A stretch of 62,070 nucleotides of DNA from Deltaproteobacteria bacterium (GCA_019312665.1 JAFDCZ010000002.1:1-62070), one strand, 5' to 3'; shown: positions 37,905 through 47,425, counted from the first letter of the stretch. A program made the numbers and translations. The notes: generated by a model from the sequence alone, not told the origin.

Positions 37905-40900
37905 CTACCAGGTATCGATGCAAGGGCGTTTCTTGCCGGTTCGAGGCACTGGCGGCGGGGCCGAGCGGAGGGCACGCATCACCCAGGTTCGGGATTCTGC
38001 CGGGTCGATGACATCGTCGATCTCGAAGGTCGACGCGGTGTTGAGAGCCTTCCCGTGCTCGTACATGCGGGCGACCATCTCGTCGTAGAGCGCACGGCGC
38101 TTGTCGGGATCTTCTTCGGCGGCCAGCTCCTTGCGGAAGCCGAGCTTCACCGCACCTTCGAGGCCCATTCCTCCGAACTCGCCCGTGGGCCAGGCCACCG
38201 TGAAGACACCGGCCTTGAAGCTGCCACCCGCCATCGCCTGGGCGCCCAGGCCATAGCCTTTGCGCAGGACGATCGTGAAGAAGGGCACGCTCACGCTGGC
38301 CGCGGTCACGAACATGCGGCTCGCGTGGCGAACCAGGGCCGTCTTCTCTGCTTCGGGCCCGACCATGATGCCGGGCGTGTCGCAAAGAAACAGGATCGGC
38401 AGATCGAATGCATCACAGAGCTGCATGAATCGCGCGGCCTTGTCGGCACCATCGCTATCGATGGCACCCGCCAGATGGGTCGGGTTGTTCGCGATGATGC
38501 CGAGCGGGCGACCCTCCACCCGCGCCAGAGCCGTGACCATGCCGGCGCCGAAGCCCCGGCGTATCTCGAGCACCGAGCCCGTGTCGGCCATGGTCTCGAT
38601 GACCTCGCGCACATCGTAGATGCGCAGCCGGTTCTCCGGAATCGCGCTGCGTAGCAGGCGCTGATCGGCACACTCCCACTCGGCCAGCGGACCCTGGAAA
38701 TAGGAGAGGTACTGCTTGGCCACCTGCACGGCCTCGGCTTCATCGACAACGGGGATGTCGACCACCCCGCTCGGCACCTGGTCGGACATCGGGCCGACTT
38801 CCTCGGGTCGGAACACACCGAGGCCGCCGCCTTCGATCATCGCCGGGCCCCCCATTCCGATGTTCGAACCCTCGGTCGCAATCACGACATCGCAGCAGCC
38901 CAGAAGCGCTGCGTTGCCCGCAAAACAACGCCCCGACGTGATGCCCACCAGCGGCACGAGCCCCGACAAACGCGCAAAGAAATGGAAGGCCATGCAATCG
39001 AGACCCGCCACGCCTATTCCGTCCGTATCGCCGGGCCGGCCGCCTCCGCCTTCCGTCAGGAAGACCAGCGGGATCCGCAGGCTCTCGGCCAGCTCGAACA
39101 TGCGGTCCTTCTTGCGGTGGTTCTGCAGGCCCTGGGTGCCGGCCAGCACGGTGTAGTCGTAGGAGAGGGCCACGCAGCGCGAGGCCTGCTCCCCGAAGTG
39201 ATCGCCGTTCACGCTGCCGATGCCCGCCACCATGCCGTCTGCCGGGGTGCGTCGAATCAGATCCTCGAGGCTTCGCCGACGGCGCTGGGCCGCGATGACG
39301 ACCGCGCCGTACTCGACGAAGGAACCCGGATCGCAGAGATCCTCCACGTTCTCGCGCGCGGTTCGCTGCCCGGTCTTGCGCCGGCGAGCCACCGCCTCGG
39401 GGCGCGCCGGATCGAGACCCAACGCGTGGCGCTCCTGGATCTCGGCCAGATCCGGACGCACGTGATCGAGATCGATGGCTTCCGGTTCCTCACCGGCCTC
39501 GCGATCGACCTCGGCTTCTTCGAGGAACAGAAGCGGGTGGCCCTCCAGGACCGTGTCCCCCGGAGCGACCGCCAGGGCCCGTACGATTCCGCTGCGGTCG
39601 GCTGCGATGACGTGCTCCATCTTCATCGCCTCCATCACCAGCAGCGGTTGGTCGCGGGCGATGGCGTCACCGACGGCGACATCCACGCTGACGATGGTGC
39701 CCTGGAGAGGCGCGGGCACAGGCTGGGTGCCCGGCGGTCCAGCGGCCAACGGCGCGGGCCCAACCGGGGCACCGCCAGCTTGACTCACGGCGACAGGCAC
39801 CCCCTTGCCATGCTCCAGCACGGCCAGGGGGTCGTTGCTTTCGAGACGAACGCCAGCGTGCCCGGTTTCGGCCACTTGGCGTGGAGACGTGGTCGTGGGT
39901 ATCGCGGCCAACAGTTCCGGAAGGTGGGCTTCGACGAAGCGCGTCGTCACCCGGTTCGCGCGGACATCGGGATGCGCCAACAGGCTTCGAAGCAGTGGCA
40001 GATTGGTGCGCACACCTTCGATCCGGAACTCGCCCAACCCGCGAAGAGCTCTCGCGACGACTGCGTCGAAATCTCCCGAAGGGGAATGAGCAACGAGCTT
40101 CGCCAGCAGCGAATCGAAACGTGGGTTCGTGGCGTAGCCAGCGTAGCCGTAGCCATCCACCCGGATGCCCGGGCCCGCAGGCGGTTCATAGACCGCCAGC
40201 ACACCTCCCGATGGCCGCACGCTGCCATCCTCGGCGAGCGTCTCCAGGTTGACCCGCGCCTGGAGCGCGAAGCCGCGGGGCGTGGGCACCTCTTCCTGAC
40301 GAAGCTTCAAGTCTGCCAGGCTTGCGCCACCGGCGATGCGAAGCTGGGCGGCCACGAGATCCACCCCGGTCACCTCTTCGGTCACGGTATGCTCCACCTG
40401 CAGCCTGGGGTTGGCTTCGATGAATGCCCATTCGTCCTCCGCGTCCAACAGGAACTCGAAGGTGCCAAGGCTGCGGTAGCCGACCTCCCGGGCCATGCGG
40501 ACCGCGGCCTCGGCCAGTTGGGCGCGCACCGATTCCGGGAGCGTCGGACTCGGGGCGATCTCGATCAGCTTCTGGTGCCGCCGCTGCAGGCTGCACTCGC
40601 GTTCGCCGAGTTGCGCGATACCACCCTGCCCGTCCCCGATGATCTGGATCTCGAGATGGCGCGCAACGGGCACCAGGCATTCGACGTAGAGAGCATCGTT
40701 GCCGAACGCCGCACCGGCCTCGGATGCGCAGCGCGCCCACGCTGCCTCCAGGGCTTCCGGGCTGTGCGCGGGACGCATCCCTCGACCCCCTCCCCCGGCA
40801 AGCGCCTTGATCATGACCTTTCCACCCTCACCGAACGAAGCCAGGAACGCCTGCGCCTCCTCCAAGCGGGTCGGGCCGCGGGTCCCGGCCAGGACGGGAA

Positions 40901-41273
40901 CGCCGCAGCGCTCGGCCAATGCACGCGCCGCCGTCTTGTCGCCAAGCGCGCGCAGGGTTTCCGGCCGCGGGCCGACCCAGGTGATGCCCGCGTCTTCGCA
41001 GGCTTGCGCAAGCTCGGGGCTCTCGCTCAGCAACCCATAACCAGGGTGGAGTGCGTCGCAGCCGGTCTCGTGTGCCGCGGCGACGAGGGCCTCGGCATCC
41101 AGGTATGCTGCTGGCCCGGCCCCCGACAGCGTGTGCGTTTCATCGGCCAGGCGCAGGTGAAAGCTCGCCGCGTCGTCCGGTGACGCGATCGCGACCGCCT
41201 CGATCCCGAGTTCCCCGGCGGCCCGGAGCACGCGCACGGCGACTTCGCCGCGATTCGCGACCAGGAGCTTCAC
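37905..41273 (-). CDS. Single-chain acyl-CoA carboxylase (biotin carboxylase-BCCP-carboxyltransferase fusion)
   Basis: ANRGE, HPGYG, RECSLQRRHQK, NPRLQVEH (BC); EAMKM biotin site; YDYTVLAGTQG and DTPGIMVG (CT). Confidence 0.93.
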   Translation of the reverse strand: MKLLVANRGEVAVRVLRAAGELGIEAVAIASPDDAASFHLRLADETHTLSGAGPAAYLDAEALVAAAHETGCDALHPGYGLLSESPELAQACEDAGITWVGPRPETLRALGDKTAARALAERCGVPVLAGTRGPTRLEEAQAFLASFGEGGKVMIKALAGGGGRGMRPAHSPEALEAAWARCASEAGAAFGNDALYVECLVPVARHLEIQIIGDGQGGIAQLGERECSLQRRHQKLIEIAPSPTLPESVRAQLAEAAVRMAREVGYRSLGTFEFLLDAEDEWAFIEANPRLQVEHTVTEEVTGVDLVAAQLRIAGGASLADLKLRQEEVPTPRGFALQARVNLETLAEDGSVRPSGGVLAVYEPPAGPGIRVDGYGYAGYATNPRFDSLLAKLVAHSPSGDFDAVVARALRGLGEFRIEGVRTNLPLLRSLLAHPDVRANRVTTRFVEAHLPELLAAIPTTTSPRQVAETGHAGVRLESNDPLAVLEHGKGVPVAVSQAGGAPVGPAPLAAGPPGTQPVPAPLQGTIVSVDVAVGDAIARDQPLLVMEAMKMEHVIAADRSGIVRALAVAPGDTVLEGHPLLFLEEAEVDREAGEEPEAIDLDHVRPDLAEIQERHALGLDPARPEAVARRRKTGQRTARENVEDLCDPGSFVEYGAVVIAAQRRRRSLEDLIRRTPADGMVAGIGSVNGDHFGEQASRCVALSYDYTVLAGTQGLQNHRKKDRMFELAESLRIPLVFLTEGGGGRPGDTDGIGVAGLDCMAFHFFARLSGLVPLVGITSGRCFAGNAALLGCCDVVIATEGSNIGMGGPAMIEGGGLGVFRPEEVGPMSDQVPSGVVDIPVVDEAEAVQVAKQYLSYFQGPLAEWECADQRLLRSAIPENRLRIYDVREVIETMADTGSVLEIRRGFGAGMVTALARVEGRPLGIIANNPTHLAGAIDSDGADKAARFMQLCDAFDLPILFLCDTPGIMVGPEAEKTALVRHASRMFVTAASVSVPFFTIVLRKGYGLGAQAMAGGSFKAGVFTVAWPTGEFGGMGLEGAVKLGFRKELAAEEDPDKRRALYDEMVARMYEHGKALNTASTFEIDDVIDPAESRTWVMRALRSAPPPVPRTGKKRPCIDTW

Positions 41274-41285
41274 GATGCTAGGCCG

Positions 41286-42155
41286 TCACGCCTTGGCGTC
41301 ACGCCGTTTGTTCATCAGCGCGATGATCGGCGAAGGCTCGGCAGGATGCCATTTCGTCTGCTTGGGATCCTCGTGCCAGACGAAGGGCAGATGTTCCACG
41401 GTGCCGGGTTCCTGGGCCGACTCGAAGAGGCTGAGGGCCGCGCGCAGAACGCTCCCCTGGGTCTCGCGGTCGCCCACATCACCGAAGGGCCGCCCAAACG
41501 GATGCTCGATCGCCGCGACCCGCGGCATGCCGATGGCCCGCTGAAGCGGCCACAACATGTTCAGTGTCACGGTCGGGATGCCCCGTGCCTCGATCTCTCG
41601 TGCGACCAGCCCCACGGACCGGCAACAATCGGGTCAGACCGGCGTGAGGAGCGCAAGGTCGACCTCCTCGCTGAGCATGGCCTCCGCGATCTCCGGGGCA
41701 CTCTTCTCGACCAGGGTGCTGGAATCGCTGCCCTGGAAGCCCATGATCGAGTAGTGGCTCTCGGCGCTCGCGCCGACCTTGCCCTCGTCCACGAGCTCGC
41801 GAAGCCGATCGACCGGAAGCGACACGTTCAGATCTCGCTCGACGTAGCCCGTATCGATGTGCAGATGGTTCGCCTCGATCCCTGCTCCCGTCGCGTCGGA
41901 ACGCAACCGCCGCCAGCTCGAATCGCCCCGGGTCGGATGCTGACGCTCGTACTCCATGTCGAAGGGGACGTCGCCCTTCATCGAGAGCCCCGATGTCGAC
42001 AGGAGCGAAACTTTCGATTCGGCAAGGGGCTTGGTCGCCGGCGTCCACGGGATCGGCGGGTGATTCGCCTGCTCCGGAATCCCTCGGGAGAGGATCTTCT
42101 CGAGGAACGAGCCGGTGAATCGCCAGGGGTCGACTTCGCGTTGGGAATCACTCAT
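41286..42155 (-). CDS. PrdB/GrdB-family (proline/glycine reductase selenoprotein B-like) selenoprotein, Sec at UGA 41634-41636, 289 aa
   Basis: Two track ORFs are in the same frame and separated only by a TGA and five codons: ...VDLALLTPV-U-PDCCRSVGLVAREIEARGIPTV.... The N-half has the PrdB-type motifs KPLAESKVSLLSTSG, GDSSWR and DLNVSLPVDRLREL. A SECIS-like hairpin follows the TGA. Confidence 0.9.
41591..41633 (-). other. Bacterial SECIS-like element
   Basis: After UGA: CCCGAU-UGU-U-GCCGGUCC-GUG-GGGCUGGU-C-GCA-CGAGAG-AUCG. The 8-bp upper stem has a G-initiated apical loop 18 nt after UGA. Confidence 0.7.
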
Positions 42156-42228
42156 CGCCAGAAGCTAACACGGCGCCGTCCGATCCGTCCCAGACCTCCG
42201 ACTTCCGCCAGCGGCTCGTCGGTGACGG

Positions 42229-42675
42229 CTACGTGAGGATGGAGATGGCCGAGGTCACGGCCATCCAGACCGTGATCCCGAAGCCAATCGACCAGACCGC
42301 CGTGCGATGGGGCATCAACCCCTTCATGTAGGCGACGAGATGCAAGATGCGTCCGATCGGAAAGCCCGCGAAGCAGATCCACAATCCGAGGGTGCTCGGC
42401 TGGGTCAGGGCGTAGATGAGGCCCACCAGCACGAAAGGCAGCCCCGCTTCCAGATCGTTCAGATGCACGCGCCGCGCGCGCTCGACTTGATCATCCGTAG
42501 CCGTCTGCGGCTCGAGCTTCTGCAACTCGTAGTCCTCGGGCGAGCTGAAGACGTTCTTTCGGATTCGGATCGAACTGACGAGCATGCCCGTGGCAAGCGT
42601 CTTGAGTGCGACCACGATGGACGAAAGGGCCCAGGCCTTGATGGCGGCGTTCGAGAGAAACTCTTCCAAGAGCAT
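42229..42675 (-). CDS. MAPEG family membrane protein (microsomal GST-like)
   Basis: FSSPED, VERARRVHLNDLE, GRILH. GGAGG SD and TGcTAGCGT extended -10. Confidence 0.9.
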   Translation of the reverse strand: MLLEEFLSNAAIKAWALSSIVVALKTLATGMLVSSIRIRKNVFSSPEDYELQKLEPQTATDDQVERARRVHLNDLEAGLPFVLVGLIYALTQPSTLGLWICFAGFPIGRILHLVAYMKGLMPHRTAVWSIGFGITVWMAVTSAISILT

Positions 42676-42776
42676 GGCTTCCTCCTGCTGGAGGCGACGC
42701 TAGCACGGGCTCCCGAGACAGGAGGGCCCTGGGGCATTGGGTAAACCTCGCCCCCGATCCTGCCGATCAGGAGGCC

Positions 42777-43558
42777 ATGGAGCATTCCCCCGAGCGGCGC
42801 CGAGAGCCTCGCTTGGCCGTAGACGCGGATGTGTGGATTCTGGGCTGGACCGGCCTGAGGAGAGGCCGCCTGGGCGACGCTTCCTCGGCCTCTCTCGGAA
42901 TCGCGCTTCGAGGACGCGCGCCTGCGCGGGGCACTCGCGTTCTGGTCTTCCTGCCCACCCCCCGGAAGCTCCGATGGCCCGCCGTTCTTCTGGCCCGGGT
43001 CGTGCATCGGGATGAGAACCTGGGCGTGGCGTTCACCTCGATTCCCCGAGGCGCCCGACCGTGGCTCCGGAGATTGATCGAGAGCGCCAGCCCTGGAGAC
43101 ACCCGTGGCGCGGCGGAACGGATCGTACCCGAGAACGCCGAGACGATCGGCGACAATACGAGGAACGCCTGACGGCCCTCTCCGATCGGACCCCGCATCT
43201 GCTGGTTGCCCGCGACCTCTCGGCCGAAGGCCTCCGGGTGGATCTCCTCCACTGGGCCGAAATCGGTAGCGAGCTGCGCATCTCGTTCCCGGTGCCCGGA
43301 GCCGGCCCGCCGATCGCGGTTGCCGCGCGCGTGGCGCGACACGATGGCGCCCACGGAACCCTTCTGCGCTTCGAAGCCATCGTACCGGAACAGCGCGACG
43401 CCATCGGGCGCCTTCTCACGCTGCTCCACCCCCTCCCCGATGGACGTCGGGAAGGGGTTGCCCTCGCTGAAGTGGCCTGGCGTCAGGCCGTCGGCGCGGC
43501 CTGCGGACCGCGTACGAGCCCGCCGGGCAATGCACCGGTCGGCTCGCCGTCCTCGTAG
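42777..43558 (+). pseudogene. Tandem PilZ protein split by a frameshift (~43085-43125)
   Basis: Frame 1: ERRREPR...DASSAS...ARVVH...LGVAF. Frame 2: ERRDDRR...DLSAEG...ARVAR...LLRF. The second frame has no SD. Confidence 0.6.
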
Positions 43559-45198
43559 ATGATCTCACCGTTCTTGATGGTGTAGCGGTAGCCGTCGACC
43601 TTCTGGATCAGGCGACGTCCGTTGGCGGGCAGGTCGTAGACCATCTCCGGTGCGTGCAGATGCAGAGCGTCGAAATCGATCAGGTTCACGTCGGCACGCA
43701 TCCCGGGTGCGAGCGTTCCGCGATCCTCCATCCCGTAGAACGCGGCGGTGCGGCGCGTCTGGCGTTCCACCACGACCTCGAGCGGAATCCGCTCGCCGCG
43801 CTTCCGGTCGCGCACCCAATGTGTGAGCAGGAAACTGGGCATGCTGGCATCGCAGATCAGACCGCAATGAGCACCACCATCCGAGAGTCCGAATACGGAA
43901 TTCTCGTGAAGCATCATCTGCCGGATCGGCTCCAGATCGCCGTTCGCGTAGCCAAGCAACGGCATGTAGATGAAGCCACCGGCGAGCATGAGGTCGTAGG
44001 CCACTTCATCGGGGCTGCAGCCTTTGCGTTTCGCGATGGCCGCCAGGCTCTGGTCCGGTGCCGGTTCGTATTCCGGCGGATCGCCCAGGGGAAACATCAT
44101 CTGCCAGGCACCTGCGATCACGGCCGTGATCGCAGGCAGGCCCACGAGATTCGGCTCATCCGCCAGAATGGCTTCGCGCACGGCCGGCTCCGCCAGCTTT
44201 CGAAGCCTCTCCTCACGCGGGAGCGCGGCATGGGCCGCGAAAGCCTTGCGCAGCATGAAGGGGTGGAAGCTGCTCTCGAAGCCGAGCAGCATGCCCGCCG
44301 GCCGTTGCGCCACCTGGGGTGTCAGGTGGCCGCCTTCGGCCCGATCCTCGTCGACCACCGCCAGGAGTCGTTTCCATTGATCGGGATCGGCCGGGCTTTG
44401 GAGACAAGCAAAGGTCACCGGACGACCGGTCTCTTTGCCGAGCTGGCGCATCCAGCGCAGCTCGTCGCCTTCGGGCGCGAGATCGCTCGCCACCTCGAAC
44501 ACGCCATGCCCCACTTCACCTAGCATGCGGCCGATGCCGAGCACTTCTTCGTCCTCGGCGGTGGTACCGGGAACCAGTTCGCCGTCCTTGGCCCGATGCA
44601 ATAGCGTCCGGGAAGTCGAGAAGCCGAGGGCGCCAGCCTCGAGACCTTCCTTCACGATCGCCGCCATTTCGGCGATCTCCCCGCTCGTCGCCTTCTCGTT
44701 CTTCGCACCGCGCTCGCCCATCACATAGGCGCGCACCGCACCGTGGGGAACCTGGGCCGCCACGTCGATTGCGCGGGGAATCTTCTCCACGGCGTCCAGG
44801 TACTCGGGAAAGCTCTCCCACGACCAGTCGATGCCTTCCGCCAAGGCCGTGCCCGGGATGTCCTCGACTCCCTCCATCAACTGAATCAGGAAATCCTGTT
44901 GGCCCGGTCGCACCGGCGCAAAGCCGACGCCACAATTTCCCATGACGAGGGTCGTCACACCGTTCCAGCCCGAGGGCGTGAGATAAGGATCCCAGGTCAC
45001 CTGGCCGTCGTAGTGGGTATGGATGTCGACCCAGCCGGGCGTGACGAGCAAGCCTGTGGCGTCGATCTCGCGCTTGGCGGGGCCGACGTCGTTGCCAACC
45101 GCGACGATGCGATCACCTTGGATGGCCACGTCGGCCTGGCGCGCCTCGGCGCCTGTGCCATCTACGACGGTGCCACCGCGAATCACGAGATCATGCAT
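43483..45198 (-). CDS. N-acyl-D-amino-acid deacylase family amidohydrolase (paralog of 17914-19671)
   Basis: [33 protein letters not shown]. Confidence 0.9.
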
Positions 45199-45262: not shown

Positions 45263-47425
45263 TCAATCGGCGGCTTCGATCCTGACCGGGACGCCGTTGA
45301 AGACGGCATTTCCCACCACGGGCTCCAGAACCGCATCATCGACGAGATCGTTGCAAGACACACCGGGATGGGCCTCGGCCACGGCCATGCGCAGGCCCGG
45401 GCCGTGATGCCCCCAGCCATGAGGCAAGCTCACGACACCGGGCATGAGGTCGGAGGAGAGCTCGAGAGGTGCCTCGATCTTCCCGACGCGACTCGAGATG
45501 CGCACGGTCTGTTCATCCGCGAGGCCGAGCTTGGAAGCGTCGTCCGGGTGCATCAGCAAGGTGCAGCGCTCCCGGCCCTTCGTTCCAACCCGCGTGTTGT
45601 GGATCCAGGTGTTGCAGGTACGAACGTCGCGGCGTCCGATCAAGCGGAAGCTCTCCTGTTCGGAAGGCGCTGCCAGCTCATTGGCCAACCTCGTGAGTTC
45701 ATCGCGCATCGCAGTCGGCGCCAGGTCGATGCGGCCATCCGGGGTACACAGGATCCTGTCAAGGCCGGGCCCGAGAGGCCCGAAATCGATGCCGCTCGGG
45801 CTGGCCTCGAGATCGCGCAGGCGAAGTCCGCTCCGCCAGGGGCGGAAACCATCTCCGTGGGGGCCCGCACGCAGGGCCAGATCGAGCAACGTACGGACGC
45901 TCGGAACACGACCTCGAAGGAGTCCGAGCGCGAACTTTCGCAACGCGCCACCCTTGCGCGCGCCGAGGCGCAAGCCGAGTTCCGCCAGCAGTTCGAAATC
46001 ATCGAGCTGGCCCGGCTCGGGTGAGAGCGCCGCCGGTGAGAACTTTGCGGTGTTGCGAATGGCGAAGCCATGGAACAGCGCTTCGTAGTTGTCGTGTTCC
46101 AGCGACCAGCTCGGCGGCAGGATGAGATCCGCGTGCCGGGTCGTCTCGTTCAGGTAGAAATCGACAGCGGCGTAGAACGAGAGGCCTTGCATGGCTCGGC
46201 CGAGGCGGGCGCCGTTCGGTGCGCTCAGCACAGGGTTCCCCGCGACCGTGATCAACCCGCGAACCTGGCCTTGACCTGGCGCCTCGATCTCCTCGGCAAG
46301 ACAGGCCGTGGGCATGTCCCCGTTGAAGATAGGCGCGCCGCGCACGCGGGTCCTGCCCGTGTTGAGCTCCCCCGTACCCCCCTGAGCAGAAATCATTCCT
46401 GCCAGGTCCAAAGCAGGATGCGGAAACATCGCACCGCCCACTCGATCGAGATTGCCCGTCAACAGGTTGAGGACATCGACCAGCCAACTGTTGAGTGTGC
46501 CGAAGGGATGGACACAGGTTCCAATGCGGCCGTAGCAAACGGCTGAAGGCGCGGCCGCGAAAGCCCGCGCCAGCGCGCGGACCCGGCCCGCATCGATCCC
46601 GAGGGTCGCTTCGACGGCCTCGGGGGCGAAGGGCGCGAGCGTTTCTGCAAGCGCCTCCCTTCCATCCGTGCGGGCGCCGGCGGGGCTCTCCCTGCCCAGT
46701 TTCTCGTCCAGCACCGTATGAACCAGCGCCGCGAGCAACCAACCGTCGGCACCCGGGCGAATGAACCAATGCTCGTCCGCGAGCTTGGCGGTCTCGCTGC
46801 GCCGCGGGTCGACCACGACCAGGCGACCGCCGCGCTCCTGGAGCCGGCGGATCGTTCCAGAGAAGCGCGGTGCAGACATCAGGCTTCCGCCGGAAACCAC
46901 CGGATTGGCGCCTAGCATCAACATGAACGAGGTGCGTTCCACGTCGGGAATCGGCAAGTGCAGCCAGTGCCCGAAGAGCAGCAAGGACGAGGCGTGCTTC
47001 GGGTTCTGATCGAGAGAGCTCGCCGAGTAGCGGCTGCGCGTGCCAAGCGCCCTGGTGAAGGGTGTAAGCCCGAACAGAATCCCGAAGCTATGGGCCGCGG
47101 GGTTTCCGACGTAGAGGGCGACCGCGTCGTCGCCATGCTTGCGCTGGATTCCCGCGATTCGCTCGGCGGTTTCCTCGAGCGCTGCTTCCCAGGAGATCTC
47201 CTCCCAATCCGCACCTCGCCGGCGGAGCGGCTTCTTCAACCGGTCCGGATCGTTCTGGATCTCGCCGAGAGCAATGGCCTTGGGGCAAAGCGCGCCGCGA
47301 CTGTAGGGATCGTCCGGATCCCCCTCGATGCGCTTGATTTCGCAGCCCTGCACCTCGATTCGCAGCCCGCACATGGCCTCGCAGAGGTTGCAGGTCTTGT
47401 GCACGATCCGAGCGGCTTCCCTCAC
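45263..47425 (-). CDS. Molybdopterin (bis-MGD) oxidoreductase catalytic subunit
   Basis: N-terminal CNLCEAMC...C [4Fe-4S] motif; NETTRHADLILP; C-terminal MHPDDA...SLPHGWG. No Tat signal. Confidence 0.9.
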   Translation of the reverse strand: MREAARIVHKTCNLCEAMCGLRIEVQGCEIKRIEGDPDDPYSRGALCPKAIALGEIQNDPDRLKKPLRRRGADWEEISWEAALEETAERIAGIQRKHGDDAVALYVGNPAAHSFGILFGLTPFTRALGTRSRYSASSLDQNPKHASSLLLFGHWLHLPIPDVERTSFMLMLGANPVVSGGSLMSAPRFSGTIRRLQERGGRLVVVDPRRSETAKLADEHWFIRPGADGWLLAALVHTVLDEKLGRESPAGARTDGREALAETLAPFAPEAVEATLGIDAGRVRALARAFAAAPSAVCYGRIGTCVHPFGTLNSWLVDVLNLLTGNLDRVGGAMFPHPALDLAGMISAQGGTGELNTGRTRVRGAPIFNGDMPTACLAEEIEAPGQGQVRGLITVAGNPVLSAPNGARLGRAMQGLSFYAAVDFYLNETTRHADLILPPSWSLEHDNYEALFHGFAIRNTAKFSPAALSPEPGQLDDFELLAELGLRLGARKGGALRKFALGLLRGRVPSVRTLLDLALRAGPHGDGFRPWRSGLRLRDLEASPSGIDFGPLGPGLDRILCTPDGRIDLAPTAMRDELTRLANELAAPSEQESFRLIGRRDVRTCNTWIHNTRVGTKGRERCTLLMHPDDASKLGLADEQTVRISSRVGKIEAPLELSSDLMPGVVSLPHGWGHHGPGLRMAVAEAHPGVSCNDLVDDAVLEPVVGNAVFNGVPVRIEAAD

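Follow-up and report, generated by a model that had tools for sequence, protein, structure and literature searches.

The question raised by this locus was whether two neighbouring open reading frames on the minus strand encode two proteins or a single protein in which an in-frame UGA codon is decoded as selenocysteine, and what such a protein might do. The locus lies in a deltaproteobacterial sequence of 62,070 nucleotides (GCA_019312665.1, JAFDCZ010000002.1:1-62070), referred to below as the window. A sequence-only reading had proposed that both ORFs belong to one PrdB/GrdB-like frame joined by TGA. Upon translation, positions 42155-41289 of the minus strand gave one frame of 289 codons, and the sole internal stop was the TGA at codon 174 (41636-41634). 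The upstream ORF, which stopped at this TGA, and the downstream ORF shared the frame (Table 1). When the TGA was translated as U, the junction LLTPV-U-PDCCRSVGLVAREIEARGIPTV (context LLTPV-U-PDCC-RSVGLVAREIEARGIPTV) and the 289-residue product quoted in that reading were both reproduced. The complete gene was aligned over its full length with 14 orthologues and two Cys homologues.

Table 1. Features of the selenoprotein locus, numbered from the first nucleotide of the window.
Feature	Position	Strand	Details and basis
Complete gene	41286..42155	-	ATG at 42155; 289 codons including Sec174; terminal TGA 41288-41286; PrdB model match over residues 33-261
In-frame TGA, very probably selenocysteine U174	41634..41636	-	TGA conservation, Cys homologues, alignment with Sec151, contigs of other runs
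Putative redox motif U174-P-D-C177-C178	41622..41636	-	UPDCC in 17/17 orthologues
N-terminal fragment as reported by gene callers	41634..42155	-	173 aa and TGA; the protein called in the window (P0003) has 173 aa
Apparent second ORF, in fact the C-terminal 109 residues	41286..41615	-	109 aa, GTG start
SECIS-like hairpin	41601..41627	-	8-bp upper stem 41623-41616/41612-41605; lower 3-bp stem 41627-41625/41603-41601; GUG loop 41615-41613

Alternatively, the TGA could be a true stop that either separates two genes or, through a nonsense mutation or misassembly, interrupts a single one. Gene callers report two ORFs at this position, and TGA was the commonest stop in the window, terminating 50 of the 90 uncurated stop-to-stop frames of at least 250 codons; the latter also indicates that TGA is not generally decoded as sense in this genome. 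Against a true stop, the part of the gene beyond the TGA was found to be at least as conserved as the part before it and to show variation at third codon positions. Among 15 sequences, the codons varying at positions 1, 2 and 3 amounted to 52, 44 and 94% downstream (110 ungapped codons) and to 64, 54 and 98% upstream (168 codons), and the amino acid identity to the window protein was higher downstream of the UGA than upstream of it in 13 of 14 orthologues. Hence, the sequence 3' of the TGA evolves as a coding sequence. The GTG that would have to start the second ORF was replaced by GTC or GTT, neither of which is a start codon, in 7 of the 21 homologues of alignment A2, and the five codons leading from the TGA to this GTG were kept as protein (P-D-C-C-R).

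The TGA itself was retained over large distances, which also speaks against a true stop. Matches were recorded in 32 of 41 related genomes, where 75 of 78 matched stretches carried an in-frame TGA (counted manually from the table), and two of the three stretches lacking it were short N-terminal pieces that ended before the site. The motif U-P-D-C-C was present in all 17 orthologues from these genomes, which were 57-93% identical; these orthologues were collected by whole-protein similarity and are thus free of any ascertainment bias towards the CC pair. A broader scan with one genome per species yielded 72 loci, 71 of which could be classified by their pattern (L108 was unmatched). The codon at the Sec site was TGA in 69 of them, TGC in one (L107) and TGT in one (L109), and the motifs were distributed as UPDCC (65), UPYCC (3), UPQCC (1) and CPLCC (2), the conservation of CC in this set being partly a matter of ascertainment, since one of the two scan peptide patterns contained the CC motif. 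A pseudogene would not keep its TGA across orthologues, and this explanation was therefore rejected.

The homologues carrying cysteine were contiguous. Two proteins, P0116 (299 aa) and P0118 (293 aa), were 44-46% identical to the window protein and contained C-P-L-C-C in an uninterrupted frame, so that the UGA column holds U and, rarely, C. The sequence-only reading had also predicted that standard gene callers would leave the gene in fragments, and this is how it is found in the protein database. The search gave 829 matching proteins; 118 of the best 120 listed were pieces of 169-188 aa covering 56-60% of the query, a coverage which means that they stop at the UGA, and the only full-length entries among these 120 were the two Cys forms.

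An assembly error was addressed with contigs of other public sequencing runs. The share of sampled words was 0.35 and 0.30 at best and reached half in none of the runs, and contigs were used for the comparison. Contigs of three runs, among which the source sample itself may be included, extended at least 31 nt beyond positions 41634-41636 in both directions; the X4 contigs fell short of this margin on at least one side of the TGA. The same TGA was found, with neither TGC nor TGT, nor any other variant of this codon, among the differences listed; one contig showed no difference at all. The nearest listed variant was a synonymous change in a Pro codon (41640 C>G). No RNA run was listed in the search of sequencing runs.

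The source genome (5.3 Mb in 392 contigs, 90% complete) possesses the machinery that the sequence-only reading had named as a prerequisite. The selA (510 bits), selB (277 bits) and selD (355 bits) genes were all detected above the curated cut-offs, together with a tRNA-Sec (68 bits, anticodon TCA). The selD gene (G000:C351:22732-23658, L010) carries one in-frame TGA, which suggests that SelD, too, is a selenoprotein. Another SelD-like region (G000:C392:14478-15389, L011) was located inside an open frame of 841 aa and may be part of a fusion protein. Two further PrdB-like genes of the same genome were likewise interrupted by a single in-frame TGA, located at the equivalent position.

Based on these data, it was concluded with very high confidence that positions 42155-41286 of the minus strand make up a single selenoprotein gene, the UGA codon 174 of which would be decoded by the genome's own Sec system. 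A TGA acting as a true stop is regarded as extremely improbable. It was also observed that an antisense shadow ORF of 296 aa (window 41346-42236, plus strand) spans the selenoprotein gene in full and exceeds both fragments in length. A crude longest-ORF caller preferred such an antisense ORF to the split gene in 34 of 73 loci, hence automatic callers could annotate the locus on the wrong strand.

The RNA following the UGA was then considered. Single-sequence folds from the UGA onward repeatedly yielded one shared stem-loop (Table 1), which starts 6 nt past the UGA and the loop of which begins 18 nt past the A of the UGA. Its energy was -14.1 kcal/mol (z -2.37), and 5 of 200 shuffled sequences were equally stable; the 81-nt fold around the UGA was no stabler than its shuffles (z +0.64). 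Standard pairs occupied 91.8% of the 231 pair cells in 21 orthologues and paralogues, the structure having been derived from the same sequences on which its conservation was scored, and the values dropped to 26-45% in controls in which the 3' partners were slid by 1-3 columns. Compensatory double changes were observed in 2 of the 11 hairpin pairs (C-G to U-A and U-A to A-U), a result matched by 47 of 500 shuffles; the U-A to A-U change ties the first codon position of Ser/Thr to the third position of Gly. Among the 69 Sec loci, which comprised 42 distinct sequences, all 8 upper pairs were formed in 53, 7 in 14 and 6 in 2, and the mean hairpin energy was -14.0 kcal/mol. The hairpin was weaker in the two Cys loci (n=2), with 7 and 6 upper pairs and energies of -9.1 and -7.5 kcal/mol. 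Because the element overlaps strongly conserved codons (CCRSVGLV), its conservation may be largely driven by the protein.

A search of Rfam gave just two matches at chance level (E 1.7 and 6.7). The alternative structure suggested by RNAalifold for 21 sequences, a weak 5-bp helix of -2.94 kcal/mol, was dropped in favour of the hairpin obtained from single-sequence folds. A 43% identical relative (L041, G013:C30:8828-9604) reads U-P-D-C-C-K-N-V-P and has other nucleotides past the UGA; by eye, a 7-bp hairpin (ACGUGCC...GGCACGU) is possible a few bases further downstream. We proposed that the conserved hairpin is a putative SelB-binding element, which would direct the decoding of the UGA by SelA, SelB, SelD and tRNA-Sec.

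The affiliation of the read-through product was assessed with profile models. The Pfam GRDB family (PF07355) was matched by residues 35-171 with 33.5 bits, above the gathering score of 22. The match ended at position 345 of the 347 profile positions, corresponding to residue 171, three before the Sec; since the profile stops there and the NCBIfam GrdB model has 431 positions, the Pfam family may have been built from sequences truncated at UGA. The best NCBIfam match was PrdB (TIGR04483, E 1.2e-43), in which residues 33-261 covered positions 16-235 of 238 and which thus ran across the TGA. Its score of 149.2 bits fell far below the equivalog cut-off of 300. The model for the selenoprotein B subfamily of glycine/betaine/sarcosine/D-proline reductases (TIGR01918) was narrowly missed (61.7 vs 65.45 bits), and GrdB (TIGR01917) was matched with 62.9 vs 602 bits by residues 39-229 on positions 216-404 of its 431. 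As no NCBIfam model reaches its cut-off, automatic pipelines have nothing with which to rescue the gene.

For comparison, prdB genes of two annotated plasmids were used, those of Terrisporobacter petrolearius (NZ_CP154617.1) and Ligilactobacillus salivarius (NZ_LT604075.1). Both PrdB proteins contain Sec151 within LLTAG-U-GTCH-RS...RAIEEAGIPTV, and U174 of the window protein aligned with this residue. The Sec is therefore placed as in PrdB, at the UxxC position preceding the IE..GIPT segment, as the sequence-only reading had assumed. The second Cys, to which it had drawn attention, turned out to be a real signature of a clade (UxxCC) as opposed to the UxxCH of canonical PrdB.

Given the PrdB match, the protein could serve as PrdB in a genuine D-proline reductase. 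The alignment with Sec151 is in line with this, as is the name "D-proline reductase (dithiol) PrdB" given to the fragments by JGI; the score at about half of the equivalog cut-off is not. The genetic context also speaks against it. In both annotated plasmids prdA is located directly upstream of prdB, and one plasmid also carries prdC, while the other carries prdD, a prdE-like gene and a proline racemase gene. A profile search of the 90% complete source genome gave no match to PrdA (TIGR04480) or to the GrdE/PrdA Pfam family PF09338, whereas in a positive control the PrdA model detected its targets on both plasmids (976 and 928 bits). By tblastn at E <= 1e-3, neither the 5.3-Mb source genome nor the 1.08 Mb surrounding the 72 related loci gave a match to either of two PrdA proteins, to PrdD, to the PrdE-like protein, to the small protein with a CBO2463 domain or to proline racemase. 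PrdC gave just two weak matches (27-29% identity), located elsewhere in the source genome. With a completeness of 90%, prdA and the other genes of a prd cluster could in principle lie in the unassembled ~10% of the genome; nevertheless, a role as a subunit of D-proline reductase was judged very unlikely.

A maximum-likelihood tree placed the protein in a clade of its own kind. All x-P-x-C-C sequences, 22 of the 28 rows, formed one clade (support 100/99), which was separated from canonical PrdB (100/100) and from the UPVCH and UPLDH paralogues, the tree being rooted at its midpoint only and containing several long branches. The two Cys forms grouped with a Desulfobacterales MAG sequence that reads UPYCC (100/100). 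The rows comprised the window protein, 12 of the 16 related-genome orthologues (L026, L033, L039 and L040 were omitted), P0116, P0118, the two genome paralogues, the distant relatives L041-L043, the two annotated PrdB proteins and 6 of the 72 scan loci. The U/C-P-x-C-C clade is found mostly in uncultured Myxococcota; in the genomes G003, G007 and G025 its gene is located on a single large contig.

The protein is thus probably not a canonical D-proline reductase, and from its membership in a distinct PrdA-less clade it follows that D-proline reduction with a pyruvoyl partner is most likely excluded. By analogy with its relatives, it is more likely to be a self-contained reductase acting on some other substrate. 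Concerning the PrdB/GrdB-like selenoprotein originally suggested, the family and the Sec were upheld; the family was already known, and the tests described here speak against a D-proline reductase subunit.

The gene neighbourhood was inspected for a functional partner. Upstream and co-directional with the gene are a MAPEG membrane protein (42229-42675, minus strand) and a 220-aa ORF with no Pfam match (42767-43429, minus), followed by an Amidohydro_3 protein (43483-45198, minus) and a 720-aa molybdopterin oxidoreductase having no internal TGA (45263-47425, minus). A 1122-aa biotin carboxylase/BCCP/carboxyltransferase fusion with a GTG start (37905-41273, minus) begins 12 nt past the selenoprotein stop. 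This adjacency was observed in 5 loci including the window, and those that could be placed belong to the same genus; the neighbours of the window gene are common within this genus only. In another genus, an amidohydrolase with 56% identity is encoded just downstream of the orthologue (L037). When ORFs were called crudely at 73 loci, short-chain dehydrogenases and luciferase-like monooxygenases ranked first among the neighbours (9 loci each), followed by P450, Zn-ADH, an unassigned 627-aa ORF and the 1122-aa carboxylase (5 loci each). None of the frequent neighbours was accepted as a partner, because all of them belong to large families or are restricted to a genus, and no conserved partner gene was evident across the 73 loci.

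The structure of the protein was predicted with AlphaFold2 from a 17-sequence alignment. The model input (P0001) carried one artefactual last residue, the terminal TGA having been read as C. A confident alpha/beta model was obtained (pLDDT 85.9, pTM 0.88), in which Sec174 is predicted to lie between a strand (167-171) and a helix (175-190), at the N-terminus of the latter. The N-terminus of a helix that follows a strand is the usual place of a redox-active CxxC-type centre. A sequence search of solved structures gave no match at E <= 1, and a Foldseek search of the PDB gave none at E <= 0.001. In a wide VIA-align search the best Z was 9.0, the folds being LacI/periplasmic-binding-protein-like and Rossmann-type alpha/beta; as this score is at the noise level indicated by the tool, no function was drawn from the fold.

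The position of the motif in the model also suits another explanation, that the selenoprotein is a general thiol/selenol-disulfide oxidoreductase or a redox sensor with a protein substrate rather than a reductase of small molecules. A UxxC motif at a predicted helix N-terminus, the lack of a conserved metabolic neighbour and the presence of several paralogues per genome all agree with it, and proline reductase was marked as a homologue of thiol-based oxidoreductases in the accessible part of a survey (PMC1794560). Conversely, the protein is an alpha/beta domain of ~290 residues with many invariant polar residues distant from the motif, the invariant segments NHLHxDT, RVAAxEHPFxRP and TxWHP resemble a substrate pocket more than a simple redox carrier, and the sole relatives that have been characterised act on small molecules by cleaving C-N bonds. 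This explanation was considered unlikely, albeit clearly ahead of a genuine D-proline reductase.

A reductase of a small molecule is preferred, and for such an enzyme the following scheme was proposed. Sec174 at the N-terminal end of the helix would serve as the nucleophile, and Cys177 of the UxxC motif would resolve it as a selenenyl-sulfide, both roles being assigned by analogy with the family. The clade-specific Cys178 could relay oxidising equivalents to an external dithiol reductant. The respective roles of Cys177 and Cys178 are presumptive, and the relay through the selenenyl-sulfide and Cys178 is put forward tentatively, with somewhat less than even chances.

In a wider proposal, to which we give even chances, the U-P-x-C-C clade would represent a PrdA-independent selenoenzyme family that diverged from D-proline reductase and acquired a new Cys177-Cys178 catalytic arrangement. 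Its members would perform a different reductive cleavage or redox reaction, employing either a Se-S/S-S relay or a Sec/Cys/His metal site, which might be formed with the clade-invariant residues H97, H99, D101, E217 and H218. According to the same proposal, the family would be widespread among uncultured Myxococcota, most of them from marine and sediment habitats, and would occur in a few Gammaproteobacteria, Acidobacteriota and Desulfobacterota as well. As an overall explanation of the locus, a hairpin-directed selenoprotein of the GrdB/PrdB superfamily, belonging to a PrdA-less clade and acting as a non-canonical reductase, was found to be highly probable.

To our knowledge, the only characterised PrdB-type member needs PrdA, and PrdA appears to be absent from the organisms carrying the clade. 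The databases store the gene as a fragment of ~170 residues named "hypothetical protein" or "PrdB", and consequently protein catalogues lack the catalytic Sec together with 115 conserved residues at the C-terminus. Being delimited by its motif, its position in the tree and the absence of a prd cluster, the clade offers a concrete target for the functional study of PrdB-type proteins.

The accessible parts of two reviews treat PrdB as an established selenoprotein containing a UxxC motif (PMC9312934, PMC13188914), and proteins of the PrdB type are among the most abundant selenoproteins in marine samples (PMC1088965, PMC2398784). In the Sargasso Sea, "proline reductase PrdB" was the third most abundant selenoprotein family with 42 genes, as given in the part of the 2005 study at hand (PMC1088965), and the corresponding part of the GOS study of 2008 lists PrdB among the top selenoprotein families, with 235 Sec and 110 Cys forms assigned to pfam07355 (PMC2398784). 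In similarly accessible sections, the PrdB family was listed in Anaeromyxobacter and Geobacter (2006, PMC1794560), and five PrdB copies were reported for a deltaproteobacterial symbiont of an Olavius worm (2007, PMC1976440). PrdBA was used purely as an outgroup in PMC9751293. Our literature search, within the portions of the papers available, found no description of a PrdA-less UxxCC PrdB-like clade.

Several known systems are close to the window protein, among them the two paralogues of the same genome, C18:17943-18716 and C168:13446-14129. Both contain the same domain, with the TGA in the corresponding alignment column and a hairpin equally far from it, whereas they are only 28-37% identical to the window protein, belong to other clades and have other neighbours. 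The first (L023 1513-2283) reads VPA-U-PLDH, with Asp in place of the resolving Cys, i.e. it would be a Sec protein without a UxxC partner, and is preceded by a 291-aa ORF on the same strand. The second (L024) reads VPL-U-PVCH and begins at the end of the preceding ORF, in which a Rieske-like motif (CPHLGGPL...CPWHGYRF) was recognised by eye, suggesting an operon unlike that of the window.

GrdB, GrdF and GrdH belong to the same superfamily, and residues 39-229 of the window protein match the C-terminal half of GrdB. Unlike GrdB, the window protein lacks the ~210 N-terminal residues and has UxxCC instead of the UxxCxxC given for GrdB in the accessible part of PMC13188914. No match to GrdA (PF04723) or GrdE was obtained in the source genome; the GrdA model matched no control genome either.

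PrdB and the window protein consist of the same domain, are similar in size and are encoded by genes with an in-frame TGA, and the identity is 34-37% in the alignment and 33-36% by tblastn. U174 falls on U151 and C177 on the Cys of PrdB (+3), after which follows a helix ending in ..IE..GIPT. The window protein differs from PrdB in having C178 in place of His (UPDCC vs UGTCH), an N-terminus longer by ~25 residues, an insertion (DMEYERQHPTRGDSSW) and a C-terminal extension of ~40 residues, and no prdA, prdC, prdD, prdE or racemase context was found around its gene. The marine and deltaproteobacterial PrdB family of Zhang et al. shares with it pfam07355, the UxxC motif, the occurrence of Sec and Cys forms and a distribution in non-Stickland Deltaproteobacteria; in the accessible main text, subfamilies are not separated, and neither the UxxCC form nor the absence of PrdA is mentioned. 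The gene most probably falls inside this operational PrdB family, and it is an unannotated gene of an already known selenoprotein family rather than a new kind.
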